DNA of 63,402 nt, counting the filler, from Coriobacteriales bacterium (GTDB lineage: Bacteria > Actinomycetota > Coriobacteriia > Coriobacteriales > UBA8131), in NCBI GenBank assembly GCA_031263105.1. It is 7 parts of 7 records of this genome, joined end to end, with 100 filler letters (N's around TTAATTAATTAA, not from the genome) between each part and the next. Parts side by side here need not be neighbours in the genome. Positions count along the whole stretch, not along the records: positions 1 to 21,091 come from JAISGJ010000225.1; 6 more parts are not named here. One strand, written 5' to 3'. Positions 6,001 through 12,000 of the stretch are shown here, one piece after another (positions within the stretch are counted from its first letter, which is position 1; each line of letters starts with the position of its first letter). The position numbers were made by a program.

Positions 6001-9000
6001 TGATCTTGGTCACTCCGTCGATGAGGCCGCGCACGTCCGCCGAGAACACCTTCTCGACGTCGTCGAGGGTCATGGCGGTGTCCTCGACCGTGTCGTGGAG
6101 AAGGGCGGCGGTGATGGTGTCGGCGTCCATGCGCAGCTCGGCCAGGATGAGCGCGACCTGGATGGGATGGTTCACGAAGGCCTCGCCGGTCTTGCGGACC
6201 TGCCCTTTGTGCGCCTTCGCTGCAAAGGAGAAGGCCTGCTTGAGCTGGGCGACGTCCTTGGGACCCAGATAGGTGCCCGCCTGCTCGACGAGCCTGCTGA
6301 AGGCGTCGGGGACAAGGTCGCGCGGCTTCGGTGCCAAGGGAGGCGCGCCCTCGCTCGTCTCACCCATGGACGTCCGCCTGCCGTCCGCCGAGCGGGGTCA
6401 GGGGCCCCCGTATCTGGTCGCGGAGCTCGTCGCTTTCCGCCGCGAGCGCCCATTGCCTGAAATCCTCGAAAAGCGCGAGCTCCTCCCTGCCCTCAAGGTA
6501 CCTGCTGCTTGCAGAGAGCTCGACCCGCCTGTCGGCGACGAGGGCGACCGTGCGAGGTGCTTCGTCGTCGTCGAGGGATCCGAGGGGGTCGAGGGGGGCC
6601 TGTTCGAGCAACCCGAGCTCCTCGAGGATCGCGAGCGCGTTCAGGGCCCCTCTCCCGTCGAGGGGGCATTGGGGGTCCCTGTGGCGGCAGGCGTCGGCAA
6701 GGCCCTGCGCAGAGACGACGAGGGGGGCGCCCTTGCCGGGCGCGGCATCGTGCCCGGAGGCCAGGTCGCCCAATGCCCGGTACAGGGTCACCATCTCCTC
6801 GCGCCCGGGCGAGAGCGGGGCGAGCAGCCGCCTGTTCAGGTGCGCGTCGTCGTGCGTGTAGAGCAGATGGACCGTCGCGTCGGCACCGTCCCTGCCCGCA
6901 CGGCCCGACATCTGGTTGAAGGCGGCCGCACTGAACGGGAGGCTGTAGAGCACCACGTCGGAGATGTCGGGGATGTCTATGCCCTCGCCGAAGGCGCTCG
7001 TCGAGACGAGCACCCTCGCCTCGCCGGCCCGGAAGGCATCCTCCAGCGCCTTGCGCGCGGCCCGTCCGAGCCCTGCGTGGTAGAAGACGACCTCTTCGGC
7101 CCTGCGCGGGTCGCGCTTGCGCAGCAGCCGCGCCAGGACGACCGTCTGCATGCGCGAGTTCGCGTAGATCACCGCCTTGGCCGCCTTGGCCACGACCTCC
7201 GCCAGCAGGCGGTCGCGGTCGCAGCGGTTGCGAAGGTCGTTGACGTGCAGGTTCTCGCGACGGGTGTCGTCCACGATGACGCGTCCGATGCCGAGGGCGT
7301 CCTTGACGGCGGCGGCGGTGCGGGCATCGGAGGTCGCGGTGAGCGCAAGGCACTGCACCTGGGGGAAGTGCGCACGCAACGCGCCGAGGTCGCGGTAGGC
7401 CGGCCGGCCGGCGGTGCGCTCCGTCTGGATGTGGTGCGCCTCGTCGAACACGACGAGGCCGATGCGCGCGGAGGAGGCGAACCTCCAGGCATGGAGGCCG
7501 AGGAACTCGGGGGTCGTGAGCACGACGTCGATGCTGCCCTCGTACAGGCCCTGGAACAGCTCGTCCTTCTCGTCGGCCGTGTTCTCCCCGGTCACCGCGC
7601 AGGCCTTGACGCCCAGGCGGGAGAGGCGCCCGACGAGGTGGGCGGACTGGTCCGCTATCAGGGCGCGCAGGGGATAGACGAACACGCTTGCGGCCTTTTT
7701 GCTGCGCGCCAGGTAGGCGGCATGGGCCTGGAAGACGAGGGACTTCCCCCTGCCGGTCGCCATGACCACCAGGACGGACTCCCCCGCCCTCAGCGCCTCA
7801 AGGGCCTCGGCCTGTGCCGGATGCAGCCGGACGGGCCTTCCGGCCACCTGCGAGGCCAGTCCTTGGATGTCGTCGCCCTCGGGTGCAGGGCCGGGAGCGT
7901 CGTCTGCATCTCCTTCGTCCGCACCGGCCCCGTCGTCGGCATCCTCGCCGTCGCTGCCGCCCTCGGGTCCGCAGGCGGCGCCTCCGCCCTCCCCCTGCCC
8001 TTCGTCCGTCCCGTCTGCGCCTTCCCGGTCGTCCGCGTCGGGCGACTCGAAGACCTTCTCGACCATGAGCTTCACACGGGGGGTGCCGCCCCATTCGTCC
8101 ACCTGCGGGCGGTAGACGACGTCCACGGCCTTCCCGCAGGAGGCGAGCGAGAGGATGTGCTCGATGCACGGGCACCTGAACCAGATGGCGGAGACGGTGC
8201 AGGCATCGTCCATGACGGAGAAGGAGAGGTGGGCCTTGTCCGCCCCCACGGCACGGGCGTTCACGAGGAACACGCCGCAGCTCACGTACAGCGGCTCCCT
8301 GTTGGCATGGCCGTAGGGCCCGAGGAGGGCGAGCTGCCCCACCGCCTCCCGGTCGAGCTCGCAGAGGGCGAGCTGCGCGTCGAGGGGCAGGGGCGGATGG
8401 AAGCCCTCGTCGGGTTCTGCGGCCATGACGGCCTCCATGCGCTCCTTGAACGCGTCGAGCCGCTCCTGCGCGACCGTGACCCCGACGGCCCCTGCGTGCC
8501 CACCGAACCTCAGCGTCAGATCCCCGCAGCGCTCGACAGCCTTGAACAGGTTGACCGTCCCGATGCTCCTGCCCGAGCCGCGCGCCTGGCCGTCCGTGAG
8601 CGTGAAGACGATGACCGGGACACCGTAGCGCGCCACGAGGCGGGAGGCGACGATGCCGCGCACGCCCTCGTGCCAGCCCTCCCCTGCCACCACGAGCACC
8701 TTCTGGCCATGATAGCCGTCCGCAGCCTGGGCGAGGGCCTCGGCGAGCAGGGCGGCCTCGACCTTGCGCCGCTCGGTGTTCAGCGCATCGAGCGTGGCGG
8801 CGATGTCGGACGCCTGTGAGGCCTCGTCGCTCAGCAGCAGGTCGAGCGCGACCGTAGGGTCGCCCATCCTGCCCGCCGCGTTGAGCCGGGGGATCAGGCC
8901 GTAGCTGAGGTCGATTGTGCTGAGCTCAGTGCCCCGCCTCTTCGAAAGCGCCAGGGCTGCGGCCGCACCGGGACGCGGCGTGCGCCCGAGGAGCGTCAGG

Positions 9001-12000
9001 CCCTCTGCGACCAGGGAGCGGTTCTCGCCGGTCAGGGGCATGACGTCGGCCACCGTCCCGAGGGTCGCCAGGTCGACGAGGTCGCGCCAGAGCAAGGGCC
9101 GGCCGAAACGTGCGCCGAGCAGGGCCATGAGCTTCAATGCGACGCCGGCCCCTGCGAGGCCGGCGAAGGGCGAATAGGGATCCAGCTTGGGATCCGTGAG
9201 GGGGATGCCATGAGGGACGCTGCCCGAGGGCTCGTGGTGGTCGGTGACAAGGACCTCTATCCCGTGCGCGAGGAGCTGGGCGACCTCCTCGTGCGCCGAG
9301 ATGCCGCAGTCGACGGTGACCAGCGTCTCGGGGGCCCTCGCATATATCCGCTCCAAGGCGCCCGGCGTCAGGCCGTAGCCCTCGTCCATGCGGTGAGGGA
9401 TAAGGCAGCCCACGTCCGCCCCGAGGGCAGCAAGCCCCCTCGCCATGCAGGCGGTGGCGCTGATGCCGTCCACGTCGAAGTCGCCGAAGACCAGTATGCG
9501 CCGACGTGCGCGCACCGCCGCCTCCAGGGCGTCGGCGACCTCCGTCATGCCGGGGACGAGGGCGGGGTCGCCCCAGTCGCGGTCGAGGTCGGGGGCCAGG
9601 AAGCGCTGCGCATCGTCTGCGTCGACGATGCCACGGGCCACGAGCGTGCGGGCAAGGAGGGGCGCGATCCCACAGGCGTCCGCGACCGCCTGTACGGCGT
9701 CCGGGTCGGCGTCGCGTATGCTCCAACGTGGTCCCAAGAAGGCCCTCCTGCATCGGTGCCCTGTATCAAGGGCAGACAAACATATCGCCTCCATTCTGAC
9801 AGAAAACCGCGTTTTGCGCAGCAGCCGTCTCTTGCGGCGCGGGCGCCGGGTTGCGGTCCACACCCTCCATGAATACCCCCACTGTCACCCACACCCCCAC
9901 TGTCACCCACGCCCCCTCTGTCACCCACGCCCCCACTGTCACCCACGCCCCCACTGTCATTCCGAGCCTGTCGAGGAATCCTCGGCCGCGCAAGCGGCCG
10001 ACCGCAGGTCGAGGGACCCCCCGACCTACCGTTGGTCGCTTCGCTCTCCATGGGCCTGTCGGCCCGTCCTCGCTGAAAACGCGGTGCGTTTTCCGGGCGC
10101 TCGGACCCAAGGATTCCTCGGCGGGGCTCGGAATGACAGTGTGCGCTCGGAATGACAGTGGGGTGTGAACGGTAACGGTGCTGGCAATGCGATAGAATGG
10201 GACACGACAGGGCGCATTGGCAAAGGCGCCGGGTTTCGGCTCTTGGAGCACCGAAGGAGGCTGAGTGGCTCGCGGCGACCGCAGGCGGTCCAGACAGTGG
10301 CGTTTCTCGGACTCGCCGCGCCGCTTCGGCGCTCAGAGGAACTACCGTTCCATCACGGACCATCAGCCGATCTCGGACACCTTCGCGCGCAAGATACTCT
10401 ACTGCAGGCGCTGCGGGAACCGCGTCGTCAGCAATGTGAGCCATTGCCCCTTCTGCGGCAAGAGCCTGCTGCCCTTCTTCAAGCGCCTCTGGTTCTGGCT
10501 CCTGGTCGTCGTCCTGAGCGCCGCCGCGACCGTCGCCCTGCTGTTCCTCAGCCCGACTGCAGAAGACGTCGCGCCCCCGCAGGAGACGCCGCTCCCTGTG
10601 GTGATAGGCGCACCGCCCACGACGCCCGCAAAGGACCTCGCCGTGGGCACGACGGTCGACTGCAACAACCTGCTCGTCACCGTCACCGGCGTCACGCACG
10701 ACCTTGTCGCCTCCGACGGCTCCCCCATCACCACCGTCGAGATACAGTTCCTCAACAAGGGCGCCGAGACGGTGGCCCTGTACTCGACGCAATGGCAGCT
10801 CGAGACGACGGGAGGGGACCGGCACGACCGCTATATCGGCAAGACGTCGGAGGGCGCCAACGTCAGCGGCGGCCTCGACTCCCAAGAGCTGGAGAAGGAC
10901 GGCACCCTCACCGTGAGCCTCTCCTTCGCGGCCGAAGGCCCCCTCCTGGCAGTGTACGCCCCCGACGCCCTCTCCTATACCGAGGCGGCGCTGGTCACCT
11001 GGTCGGTCTCACCGTCGGTCGCCCAGGACCCCCGGGCATCCGAGGGCTCCCAGGCCTCCGAGACGCCCCAAGGGGACGTCGGCTGAAGCGGCTTCCGGGG
11101 CAGTGCCGAACAAGTGCCTGTGCGTCGGATGCAGGGCGTTCTCCCCGTCATCCTCCCTCCCGGTCAGTCCCCTAGCTGCTCCGCCACGGTGAACTCGTCG
11201 AGGCCTTCGCCGTACTTCGTCGCAAGTTTCCTGAACTTGGGCTCGCGCTGCTTCCAGAGGGCGTAGAGCGGCGACGCGATGGCGATGGAGGAGTACGAGC
11301 CGAGTATGAGCCCGATGGACATGGCGAAGGCGAAGTCCTTCAAGGTCTCCCCGCCGAAGAACAACATGGCAAGGACGGGGATCATTGTGGAGAGGGTCGT
11401 GTTGATGGTGCGCATGAGCACCTGGTTGACCGAGTGGTTCGCGACCGTCATGAACGAGTGGCGCGAGGTCGTCGAGAGGTTGTCGTTGATGCGATGGAAC
11501 ACGACGACGGTGTCGTAGAGCGAGTAGCCCATGATGGTGAGCAGGGCTGCCACGACGTTCGGGGTGACCTCCCGGCCGACGATCGCATAGACGCCGACTA
11601 TGATGAGGAGGTCGTGGACCAAGGTGGTGACCGCGACGACCCCCATCTTGTACTCGAACCGGATGGCGATGTAGATGATGATGAGCGCCAAGGCGACGAG
11701 GAACGCGATGAGCGAGGTGCGCGTGACCTCCGCACCCCAGCCCGGCCCGACGGTCATGGCCTCGGCGGTCGTGCTGTCGATGCCCAACGCGGCACTGACC
11801 GCGTCCTTGTAGGTGGAGGCCTCCTGGGCGTCCGTCGTGGATATGCCGACGATGAAGCCCGCCTCCCCCGTGCGCACGTCGGTGGAGGTCTGGACGATGG
11901 CGCCCTGCACCCCTGCGTCCTCGAAGGCCGTGCGCATCTCGTCGATGCTGATCTCGCCGGTGTTCTTGAAGTCGATGGACGAGCCGCCCACGAACTCGAT

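Follow-up and report, generated by a model that had tools for sequence, protein, structure and literature searches.

Described pairings of nucleases and helicases

Textbook accounts of 5′ resection in the RecF pathway pair RecQ with RecJ, and, to our knowledge, whether and how the two couple physically is still unsettled. A nuclease and a RecQ-type motor share one chain in WRN, where the nuclease is a DnaQ-type 3′→5′ exonuclease. Firmicutes carry a long RecJ (Staphylococcus aureus RecJ, PDB 8y30; PF10141) that has no recognized helicase lobes. According to a published account (PMC4846377), E. coli RecJ alone digests 5′-tailed DNA, and blunt or 3′-tailed ends require RecQ, a 3′-5′ helicase. The same account describes RecQ as a 3′→5′ motor and RecJ as a 5′→3′ single-stranded DNA exonuclease; the two are separate proteins, which in Deinococcus were not found to interact directly. 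AddAB, AdnAB, and RecBCD couple unwinding to strand degradation at DNA ends through SF1 motors and PD-(D/E)XK nucleases. ExoDinG (S. aureus DinG, with an N-terminal 3′-5′ exonuclease) is a bacterial SF2 helicase-exonuclease fusion that combines an XPD-type 5′→3′ helicase with a DEDD exonuclease, and the lineages listed as having it include Eggerthellales and Coriobacteriales (PMC12345164). In archaea, the RecJ-like HAN is reported to work with the helicase-nuclease Hef, which pairs a DHH-family nuclease with an SF2 helicase (PMC5717133).

The protein described here brings together the same two enzyme families as the E. coli and Deinococcus RecQ-RecJ system, presumably with the same division of labor, but in one polypeptide. 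Its motor differs from RecQ in lacking a zinc site and an HRDC domain and in scoring below the RecQ family cutoff. It resembles WRN in architecture, and WRN helicase cores are among its top sequence and fold matches; its nuclease, however, is a DHH-family 5′→3′ RecJ, and the two fusions have independent origins. The role we propose resembles that of AddAB, AdnAB, and RecBCD, although motor and nuclease families differ. Compared with ExoDinG, both polarities are opposite, and unlike the fusion, the HAN-Hef pair is noncovalent, archaeal, and built on another helicase family. As the survey's finding had claimed, we encountered no description of a RecJ-RecQ-like fusion in the literature searched.

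Gene structure and start site

The window, that is, the whole stretch of DNA analyzed, comprises 63,402 nucleotides, filler included, from a Coriobacteriales genome, a bin of 250 contigs whose completeness is 86% and contamination 6.5%. The contig carrying the fusion spans window positions 1 to 21091 only.

6363..9863, minus strand: longest open frame of the RecJ-helicase fusion, from GTG at 9863; 1,167 codons
9735..9749, minus strand: likely ribosome-binding site and start (AGGAGG at 9749-9744, 6-base spacer, TTG at 9737-9735)
4034..6367, minus strand: relA/spoT-type (p)ppGpp synthetase-hydrolase, downstream; its first ATG overlaps the fusion stop by 8 bases
11167..13927, minus strand: secD (12119-13927) and secF (11167-12132), upstream of the fusion on the same strand

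The open frame had been reported at 6363..9863 with 1,166 codons and no strand; the coordinates stand, the strand is minus, and the count becomes 1,167, with the stop codon at 6360-6362. Signals in the sequence indicate that the true start is likely the TTG at 9737 (open-frame residue 43), giving a product of 1,125 amino acids. This start is favored by the AGGAGG six bases upstream, by a drop in third-position GC from 0.88-0.94 to 0.68 near position 9750, and by alignments of relatives, which begin at query residues 43 to 47; the ESM Atlas entry for the protein also begins at residue 43. The 1,093-amino-acid database version cited earlier starts within the conserved RecJ N terminus. The gene order, secD-secF-(one gene)-recJ-relA, is a housekeeping neighborhood.

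A RecJ nuclease and a RecQ-like motor in one frame

9054..9500, minus strand: DHH catalytic domain, residues 122-270 (Pfam, 71.1 bits; DxD, D, and DHH motifs)
8421..8708, minus strand: DHHA1 domain, residues 386-481 (Pfam, 56.6 bits; GGH motif)
8058..8384, minus strand: RecJ_OB domain, residues 494-602 (Pfam, 73.1 bits)
7887..8021, minus strand: acidic, glycine-rich disordered linker, residues ~615-659 (low pLDDT, linker comparison)
7314..7820, minus strand: RecA-like lobe 1, residues 682-850 (Pfam DEAD, 87.2 bits)
6885..7199, minus strand: RecA-like lobe 2, residues 889-993 (Pfam Helicase_C, 80.5 bits)
6363..6884, minus strand: C-terminal module, residues 994-1167 (helical hairpin, winged helix, two helices; no zinc ligands)

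The single open frame, its Pfam domains, and its NCBIfam scores all bear out the earlier claim that one frame holds RecJ and a RecQ-like motor; the Pfam coordinates and NCBIfam scores were reproduced exactly, and the motifs MATGRGKS and DEAHH were both found in the translation. Judged by its sequence, the N-terminal half is a complete RecJ, with DHH, DHHA1, and OB domains. It matches NCBIfam recJ (TIGR00644) at 445.3 bits against a cutoff of 396.9, with residues 67-603 covering profile positions 2-545 of 546, and it is the sole RecJ match in the genome. We aligned 67 fused proteins, picked from database matches and 26 to 65% identical to the query. D128, D130, D132, D185, and D208-H209-H210 (open-frame numbering) are invariant across this alignment, as is the G-G-H of DHHA1; we take these to represent the DHH-family motifs DxD, D, DHH, D, and GGH.

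All SF2 motifs of the helicase half (Q, I, Ia, II [DEAH], III, IV, V, and VI) are intact. Lobe 1 contains the Q motif, Walker A MATGRGKS, Ia, Ib, DEAHH, and TAT, and lobe 2 contains IV, V (TSAFGEG), and VI (QMSGRAGRDG). The Q, GK(S), DE, and motif VI arginine residues are invariant in the 67 aligned proteins and in nine helicase parts from other orders and classes. The top helicase family for the query is recQ_fam (TIGR00614; residues 681-1020, profile positions 13-348), at 193.4 bits and thus below the cutoff of 219.8, followed by DpdF at 134.5 bits. Among solved structures, the best sequence matches of the helicase part are RecQ proteins (4tmu, 1oyw, and 4q47; E values of 3e-39 to 3e-33). 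The motor is RecQ-like by sequence and fold, though under the RecQ family cutoff, and the fused helicases form one clade separate from canonical RecQ, the fused motor having a single origin. In RecQ, an aromatic-rich loop follows motif II. After DEAH the query reads HHIQTERTAGRPAY (DEAHHIQTERTAGRPAY), with no aromatic residues, and because these are absent, the motor may not couple ATP hydrolysis to DNA binding in the way RecQ does.

The motor had been described as lacking RQC and HRDC domains. At the family level this is correct: neither family was detected (for HRDC, no Pfam match at an E value of 0.1 or better in the query), and the four-cysteine zinc site, seen as C...CxxCxxC in canonical RecQs of the same class, is absent from the query, whose tail has just two scattered cysteines. 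The protein nevertheless continues where RQC would lie. The C-terminal module is conserved and 174 amino acids long, and its winged helix, following a helical hairpin, occupies the same topological place as RQC, with RecQ cores aligning over ~530 model columns; the protein stops ~60 residues past the winged helix. The full-length AlphaFold model has a mean pLDDT of 90.1, with disorder limited to the linker and the last residues. Foldseek comparison of this model with solved structures returned RecJ first (E values of 1e-43 to 1e-28) and then RecQ, RECQL5, WRN, and BLM cores (1e-20 to 1e-17). A profile comparison of fusion tails with RecQ tails gave a probability of 3.7%, no sequence-profile link, and the module appears unrelated by profile to RQC.

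The disordered segment falls at model residues 573-617 (pLDDT of <50). Among 66 relatives compared, the 26 without a long insert have linkers of 24 to 121 amino acids that also vary in composition. HIRAN, a domain that binds 3′-OH ends in HLTF, sits between RecJ and helicase (PF08797) in most lineages outside the query's order; a Pfam scan of nine fused relatives placed it over the cutoff in six and gave a weak subcutoff match in one (P0345). HIRAN was found neither in the query fusion, by Pfam, nor elsewhere in this 86%-complete genome; in the query's order, the fusion has lost the domain.

Distribution of the fusion and of separate RecQ

The fusion was matched in 298 of 301 Coriobacteriia genomes, including all 247 of high quality, so the class-wide rule proposed earlier holds; 148 of the best 150 class-genome matches lie in open frames of at least 1,088 amino acids. 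The trait is not confined to the class: at least four families from elsewhere in the Actinomycetota have the fusion, as do members of the Bacillota (Selenobaculum/Anaerosinus and Clostridia MAGs). The earlier count of 116 of the 120 best relatives with DHH, DEAD, and Helicase_C now stands at all 120 of the best listed, at 1,000 to 1,313 amino acids, and named records do label the protein just "RecJ." A separate canonical RecQ is present in this genome, as reported (C139:690-2075, 441.3 bits), but a separate match over the RecQ family cutoff was found in only 127 of the 201 class genomes searched and in none of the other 74. A direct check of five complete genomes gave the fused motor as the best RecQ-family match. 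An AddAB/AdnAB-type helicase-nuclease pair was found in all five genomes checked for it, this genome included, so the fusion is not the only resection machine.

Proposed mechanism and alternatives

We consider it probable that the fusion is a single-chain helicase-nuclease for 5′-strand resection, and we infer its polarity, coupling, substrate, and accessory-domain roles as follows. The C-terminal RecQ-like SF2 motor probably travels 3′→5′ on the kept strand, opening the duplex, and the N-terminal RecJ would then degrade the displaced 5′-ended strand 5′→3′. Motor and nuclease would thus enter the duplex in the same direction on opposite strands, which would make a covalent tether mechanically sensible. 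Such a tether would permit starts at blunt or 3′-tailed ends, gaps, and stalled forks, substrates that E. coli RecJ has been shown not to resect by itself. The hairpin and winged helix probably grip duplex or junction, like RQC in RecQ, and the linker HIRAN of most lineages probably adds recognition of 3′-OH ends.

A 45-residue disordered tether is not by itself proof of strand hand-off. Both activities could be real but independent, with the fusion serving only coexpression or colocalization, as the tether's length, disorder, and variability and the reported lack of a direct RecJ-RecQ interaction in Deinococcus (PMC4846377) would allow. We regard this as improbable, given that all fused forms examined, from two phyla, share the order RecJ-(HIRAN)-helicase-tail and that a covalent tether increases local concentration even without domain docking. 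Somewhat less credible still is a helicase half that has ceased to be a helicase here and persists as an appendage for DNA binding or regulation, on its way to decay. Such decay is seen elsewhere (Olsenella phocaeensis P0483, G547, and other long RecJs), and the query's loop after DEAH lacks the aromatic residues of RecQ, but decayed forms shed motif residues fast, whereas those of the query are intact and invariant in the 67 aligned proteins.

A setting at stalled forks or postreplication gaps, where the enzyme would trim nascent strands or enlarge gaps in place of acting at double-strand ends, is a more serious contender, though we think it unlikely to be the main role. The HIRAN in the linker of most lineages and the coexisting AddAB/AdnAB-type double-strand-end machine in five of five genomes point toward it; the query's order, however, has no HIRAN in its fusion, and sequence does not discriminate between substrates. 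This alternative differs from resection in setting, not in mechanism, and overlaps with it. Finally, two adjacent genes might have been merged by assembly or annotation, as the fragmented, incomplete, and partly contaminated bin and the numerous shorter database entries could suggest. We give this almost no credence, since hundreds of independent assemblies, as well as closed one-contig genomes (e.g., G008, G046, G130, G086, and G266), show the same uninterrupted frame, and shorter entries with names are mostly labeled partial or lie on short contigs.

Decayed forms and a possible origin of long RecJ extensions

The C-terminal module shares homology with the extension that ends long RecJs lacking a helicase, and intermediate forms exist. 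Lobe 1 is missing in O. phocaeensis P0483, lobe 2 is kept with motifs V and VI ruined in G547, and other long RecJs retain only a remnant of the helicase; motif residues are lost quickly in such forms. This series, from lobe 1 deletion through decayed lobe 2 to a barely recognizable tail, suggests that long-RecJ extensions are fossil helicases, and helicase decay in several other lineages implies that RecJ can do without the motor in some settings. The query tail gave no match to PF10141 (ssDNA-exonuc_C), while 14 of 41 fusion tails and 2 of 8 long-RecJ tails matched at an E value of 1 or better, all below the 26.4-bit cutoff (best, 23.2 bits, profile positions ~56-187 of 202); an ESM Atlas cluster bearing PF10141 ranked 8th (score, 0.91). 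We advance, tentatively and with slightly more doubt than belief, a broader reading in which the long-RecJ C-terminal domain of actinobacterial 800- to 950-amino-acid forms, and possibly PF10141 of Bacillus subtilis and S. aureus RecJ, would be the fossil of a once-fused RecQ-like helicase. On this reading, an ancient RecJ-HIRAN-helicase resection machine of Gram-positive bacteria would survive in active form as the Coriobacteriia enzyme, the motor having been lost repeatedly elsewhere while the hairpin and winged helix were kept. If true, this would explain where a widespread RecJ domain of unknown function came from and would show that a repair nuclease has lost its motor more than once.

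The fusion is a natural covalent one found in essentially a whole class, including the common human gut genera Collinsella, Eggerthella, Adlercreutzia, and Olsenella, and it is the only RecQ-like protein found in many class genomes. Annotation as RecJ alone conceals the helicase and makes many Coriobacteriia appear to be without a RecQ-type enzyme. The HIRAN-bearing form represents a bacterial case of a 3′-end-reading domain joined to a motor and a nuclease, and the fusion offers a ready-made single-polypeptide system in which to study unwinding coupled to degradation.

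Fusion gene and its neighborhood

The RecJ-helicase fusion is encoded by a single open frame of 1,167 codons on the minus strand, in which Pfam places the RecJ domains ahead of a helicase core. The features to which the text refers are as follows.

6360-9863, minus strand, open frame of the fusion gene
Residues 122-270, minus strand, DHH (Pfam)
Residues 386-481, minus strand, DHHA1 (Pfam)
Residues 494-602, minus strand, RecJ_OB (Pfam)
Residues 682-850, minus strand, DEAD (Pfam)
Residues 889-993, minus strand, Helicase_C (Pfam)
10265-11086, plus strand (opposite to the fusion), zinc-ribbon/DUF4352 ORF between secF and the fusion gene

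These domains and the accompanying profile scores reproduce the survey's finding. Among NCBIfam models, recJ scored 445.3 bits (cut-off, 396.9), and the top helicase families were recQ (194.4 bits) and recQ_fam (193.4 bits, under its cut-off of 219.8), followed by DpdF (134.5 bits) and a ligase-associated DEXH helicase (92.9 bits).

The GTG at 9863, which opens the longest frame, is probably not the true start. Third-position GC, 0.88 to 0.94 within the gene, drops to 0.68 near 9750, and a TTG at 9737 (residue 43) lies six bases downstream of AGGAGG. Alignments of relatives begin at query residues 43 to 47, and the ESM Atlas entry for the protein begins at residue 43. The product probably starts at this TTG and has 1,125 aa. 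The 1,093-aa database form (P0002) starts at residue 75, within the conserved RecJ N terminus, where the recJ profile is already aligned from residue 67.

Upstream of the fusion gene, on the same strand, are secD and secF; downstream, also on the same strand, is a relA/spoT gene, with an 8-base overlap between its first ATG and the fusion stop. Between secF and the fusion gene lie the zinc-ribbon/DUF4352 ORF, supported as a real gene by its third-position GC, and repeat-rich DNA. The neighborhood is one of housekeeping genes, with no defense island. Given these neighbors and a DpdF score lower than that for RecQ, a defense or DpdF-type role was dropped.

Several other features of the window were recorded. 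An 18-base tandem repeat at 9876-9959 (4.7 copies, 95% matches) sits just ahead of the fusion gene, running into the longest ORF at its 5′ end, and belongs to the repeat-rich intergenic region. A dispersed 16-base repeat, CACTGTCATTCCGAGC, has 53 matches with at most 2 mismatches between positions 348 and 62549, against 0.09 expected (e.g., 9952-9967, 10126-10160, 35914-36009, 45358-45487, and 52286-52427). Its copies form inverted pairs 100 to 230 bases apart and tandem arrays with a period of about 18 to 20, and it resembles an intergenic repeat family of the REP or MITE kind. Upstream of secD, two PIN-domain ORFs and a ParE-toxin ORF, at 14254-14964 (plus), 15961-16458 (plus), and 16534-17103 (minus), make up a small toxin-antitoxin-type gene group. 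The fusion lies on contig C86 (window positions 1 to 21091) of a bin of 250 contigs that is 86% complete and 6.5% contaminated; position 21091 is followed by a run of N and then by sequence from elsewhere in the same genome.

Distribution of the fusion

The fusion is a trait of the whole class Coriobacteriia, as the survey had claimed: 298 of 301 class genomes and 113 of 115 genera have a match at an E value of 1e-20 or better, including all 247 high-quality genomes, and the three genomes without a match are 59 to 82% complete. Among the best 150 rows listed (a further 543 ranked below them), 80 were single matches starting at query residues 4 to 47, of which 78 reached residues 1155 to 1164 and two (genomes G226 and G126) stopped at 1043 and 1035; the remaining 70 were matches to the RecJ part. 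All but two of these rows (148/150) lie in open frames of 1,088 to 1,320 aa, bearing in mind that stop-to-stop frames in GC-rich genomes overestimate protein lengths, and the exceptions (858 and 615 aa) are possibly cut by contig ends. Named carriers include Collinsella, Olsenella, Enorma, Slackia, Eggerthella, Adlercreutzia, Raoultibacter, Parvibacter, and Ellagibacter.

The fusion also extends beyond Coriobacteriia. In a 401-genome sample of the phylum, in which eight genomes flagged unpublished were used for no locus, seven genomes (G439, G487, G305, G463, G387, G571, and G592), which belong to four non-Coriobacteriia families, encode both halves in one frame of 1,147 to 1,279 aa. Exact-sequence look-ups added further members from Actinomycetota MAGs and carriers in the Bacillota, namely Selenobaculum gibii/Anaerosinus (a cluster of 26 members, one on a 2.68-Mb contig), Clostridia MAGs, and a Bacillota MAG. 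A 1,261-aa fused protein, P0345, comes from a 9.7-kb contig in a record labelled "archaeon," a doubtful taxon label.

When genome contigs were searched with the helicase alignment, only Coriobacteriia-like loci were seen among the best 80 of 586 confirmed. Fusion genes at loci L021, L027, L053, L054, L073, L083, and L091, on contigs titled Acutalibacteraceae, Bacteroidaceae, Acidaminococcaceae, Alloprevotella, Oscillospiraceae, Oscillibacter, and Treponemataceae, are 42 to 48% identical to the query, as in Coriobacteriia. Five oddly titled genomes were searched with PF10141, the Pfam family of the Firmicutes long-RecJ C terminus, which among control genomes matches only B. subtilis and L. lactis; in two, the sole matches lie in fusion-sized frames of 1,128 and 1,260 aa, and three have no match. 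Contigs with titles such as Bacteroidaceae, Treponemataceae, and Oscillibacter probably represent mislabelled bins.

Conservation and structure of the two halves

Across 67 full-length fused proteins, hand-picked from ranked lists and 26 to 65% identical to the query, the RecJ DxD, D, DHH, D, and GGH residues are invariant, as are the helicase Q-motif glutamine, Walker A G-K, DEAH D-E, and two motif VI arginines. In a set of nine helicase parts drawn from other orders and classes, the same residues are kept, with 97 invariant columns. At one locus (L006, G487:C63), Walker A reads GTSRGKS, not GTGRGKS, with lysine and serine kept.

The full-length AlphaFold model has a mean pLDDT of 90.1 and a pTM of 0.66, with disorder limited to residues 573 to 617 (an acidic linker) and the last eight. 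Its top solved matches in Foldseek are the RecJ structures 8y30, 5f55, 2zxo, and 1ir6 (E values, 8.5e-43 to 3.9e-28), followed by RecQ, RECQL5, BLM, WRN, and RECQL4 cores (1.2e-20 to about 3e-17). The alignment to 8y30 spans 1,127 columns, about the whole query, compared with 856 to 864 for Deinococcus RecJ and 581 to 688 for Thermus RecJ. By sequence, the helicase part (residues 640 to 1167) matches RecQ of Cronobacter (E = 2.9e-39), E. coli (7.7e-37), and Deinococcus (3e-33), with WRN and BLM ranking after the bacterial RecQs.

The last 174 residues match no Pfam family at an E value of 0.001 or better but are conserved. Folded alone (41 sequences), this module gave a pLDDT of 87.3 and comprises a helical hairpin, a winged helix, and two more helices. 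A Foldseek search of the PDB gave only weak matches, to MarR/PadR-type winged helices, and none that reached an E value of 0.001, and sequence profiles of the fusion tails and of the tails of long, helicase-less RecJs found no solved relative.

Relationship of the fused motor to RecQ

A separate canonical RecQ, reported by the survey for this genome, was recovered at 441 bits on a 2.8-kb contig (C139). Contamination is an unlikely source: RecQs from the same order score 411 to 472 bits, and given this likeness the C139 gene is probably genuine. Of 201 class genomes, 127 have a canonical RecQ over the cut-off. The top-scoring RecQ-family match in five closed genomes is the fusion itself (165 to 209 bits), the next reaching only 53 to 73 bits.

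The fused motor keeps every SF2 motif but departs from RecQ in several hallmarks, the family cut-off score among them. RecQ carries aromatic residues in the loop after DEAH; the query has HIQTERTAGRPAY here, without them. The fusion also lacks the four-cysteine zinc site (C...CxxCxxC) of canonical RecQs from the same class, and Pfam finds no HRDC in it. In a helicase-core tree built by a quick method and rooted only at its midpoint, a long branch (SH-aLRT, 100) separates all 25 fused motors from 7 canonical Coriobacteriia RecQs and 14 of the nearest free-standing helicases. In an exhaustive search of representative proteins, matches extending through the C-terminal tail were mostly to proteins of 1,000 to 1,310 aa, in their C-terminal half, or to fragments. 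Listed matches from about 170 bits down were mostly to proteins of 500 to 980 aa (besides short fragments and a single 1,442-aa protein) and covered the core only, leaving the tail unmatched. The fused motor thus arose only once; it is RecQ-like and no recent copy of the resident RecQ.

HIRAN domain in the linker

In 40 of 66 aligned relatives, RecJ_OB and the helicase are separated by 162 to 244 aa that mostly fit a HIRAN-like consensus; the other 26 have a low-complexity tether of 24 to 121 aa, as does the query (80 aa). HIRAN scored over its Pfam cut-off in 6 of 9 fused relatives scanned: three belong to other classes and one to another Coriobacteriia order, and the remaining two are those of Selenobaculum and a Clostridia MAG. 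The same scan found none in the G050 or Bacillota MAG fusions and a weak match in P0345 interrupted by LysM, a domain that lies within or beside the HIRAN region of that protein.

A HIRAN match is present in 167 of 201 class genomes. Outside the query's order, the listed rows are mostly in frames of about 1,200 to 1,340 aa, with some shorter and a few small stand-alone ORFs; the long frames are consistent with the fusion, co-location with RecJ being confirmed for the fetched loci only. In genomes of the query's order, HIRAN mostly stands by itself in an ORF of 112 to 180 aa, and the query's own genome (an 86%-complete bin) has no match. Since HIRAN is absent from the query and stands alone in its order while occurring in fused-size frames elsewhere, the query looks like a derived, HIRAN-less form. 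In this order, whose fusion has no HIRAN, the small ORF sits elsewhere in the genome (e.g., G170:C36:16969-17250 and G058:C9:7625-7909). By family, it occurs in 12 of 25 (f2), 17 of 20 (f3), and 36 of 50 (f4) genomes, tallies that take in a few HIRAN matches in long frames (e.g., G156).

Long RecJs as possible remnants of the fusion

Other Actinomycetota classes contain long, helicase-less RecJs of 810 to 948 aa (stop-to-stop frames), and in the five scanned, Pfam recognized the RecJ core alone. In profile comparisons, the part of the fusion to which their tails (240 to 350 aa) align begins shortly ahead of motif IV and runs to where the winged helix ends. Using hhalign, the tails matched the helicase alignment at 96.95% probability (E = 1.3e-10, 218 columns) and the fusion-tail alignment at 97.8% (E = 1e-12, 115 columns), while control comparisons of the tail profiles with the RQC/HRDC tails of seven canonical RecQs gave 3.7% and 0.5%; apart from the 41 fusion tails, these alignments are small (8, 9, and 7 sequences), with rows hand-picked from ranked lists. 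Against a profile of the fused helicase, the scores of individual long forms make up a graded series, and six short RecJs (about 570 aa) gave nothing significant, with best E values above 1.

Matches of long RecJs to the fused-helicase profile
Protein or genome; description; score; positions
P0483; Olsenella phocaeensis, 937 aa, 2.0-Mb contig; 425.7 bits; 185-488
G547; long RecJ; 206.4 bits; 209-480
G499; long RecJ; 56.8 bits
G662; long RecJ; 34.1 bits
G304; long RecJ; 28.8 bits
G409; long RecJ; 19.9 bits
Seven other long forms; long RecJ; under 10 bits

The O. phocaeensis protein retains RecJ, a HIRAN stub, and an intact lobe 2 with motifs IV to VI; a natural deletion has taken most of HIRAN and the entire lobe 1, from the Q motif to motif II, and has the look of a recent first stage in losing the helicase. 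In G547, lobe 2 is present with motifs V and VI ruined, and in G499 and G662 the motif V region is gone. What persists in every form is the strand that follows motif VI, along with the hairpin (P.R..L..YR.L) and winged helix (L.ILEELGL).

PF10141 gave matches below its cut-off in 14 of 41 fusion tails (best E, 6.3e-5; 23.2 bits versus 26.4) and 2 of 8 long-RecJ tails, covering about positions 56 to 187 of the 202-position profile. In the ESM Atlas, a PF10141 cluster ranked 8 (score, 0.91) for the C-terminal part, which we treat as a lead only.

We favor, with some confidence, a reading in which the tails of the long actinobacterial RecJs are what decay has left of the fused helicase. The Firmicutes PF10141 domain could be the same remnant, a suggestion that we make tentatively. 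A lone, motif-less lobe 2 arises far more easily from a full helicase than the reverse. A RecJ-core tree places the long forms in at least two clades and two single rows among the fused forms; like the helicase tree, it is a quick search without a reliable root, its backbone is unresolved, and it leaves the order of events and the root unsettled.

Previous descriptions and predicted function

The survey had found no description of the fusion, and we likewise met no RecJ-helicase fusion in the full-text literature searched; most subscription journals lie outside it, and a prior mention is possible. The architecture is visible in public domain tables. The same literature yielded no description of HIRAN in RecJ or of the origin of PF10141 and no paper on the S. 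aureus RecJ structure/8y30. ExoDinG is a different exonuclease-helicase fusion, whose carriers include Eggerthellales and Coriobacteriales (PMC12345164), and in the part consulted, a survey of DHH-DHHA1 proteins makes no mention of a helicase (PMC9757072).

In E. coli, blunt or 3′-tailed ends, gaps, and forks require RecQ besides RecJ (PMC4846377). In the fusion, a RecQ-type motor would travel 3′ to 5′ on the retained strand while RecJ degrades the displaced 5′ strand in the same direction of travel, so that tethering the two would make a self-sufficient resection enzyme for blunt and 3′-tailed ends, gaps, and forks. The hairpin and winged helix probably grip the duplex or junction. HIRAN is known from HLTF to read the 3′ end, and it probably does so here where present. 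Finally, an adjacent AddAB/AdnAB-type pair of large UvrD-like/PD-(D/E)XK proteins was found in all five genomes checked, including the query's, and with this pair present the fusion would provide a second route of resection and not the sole one.
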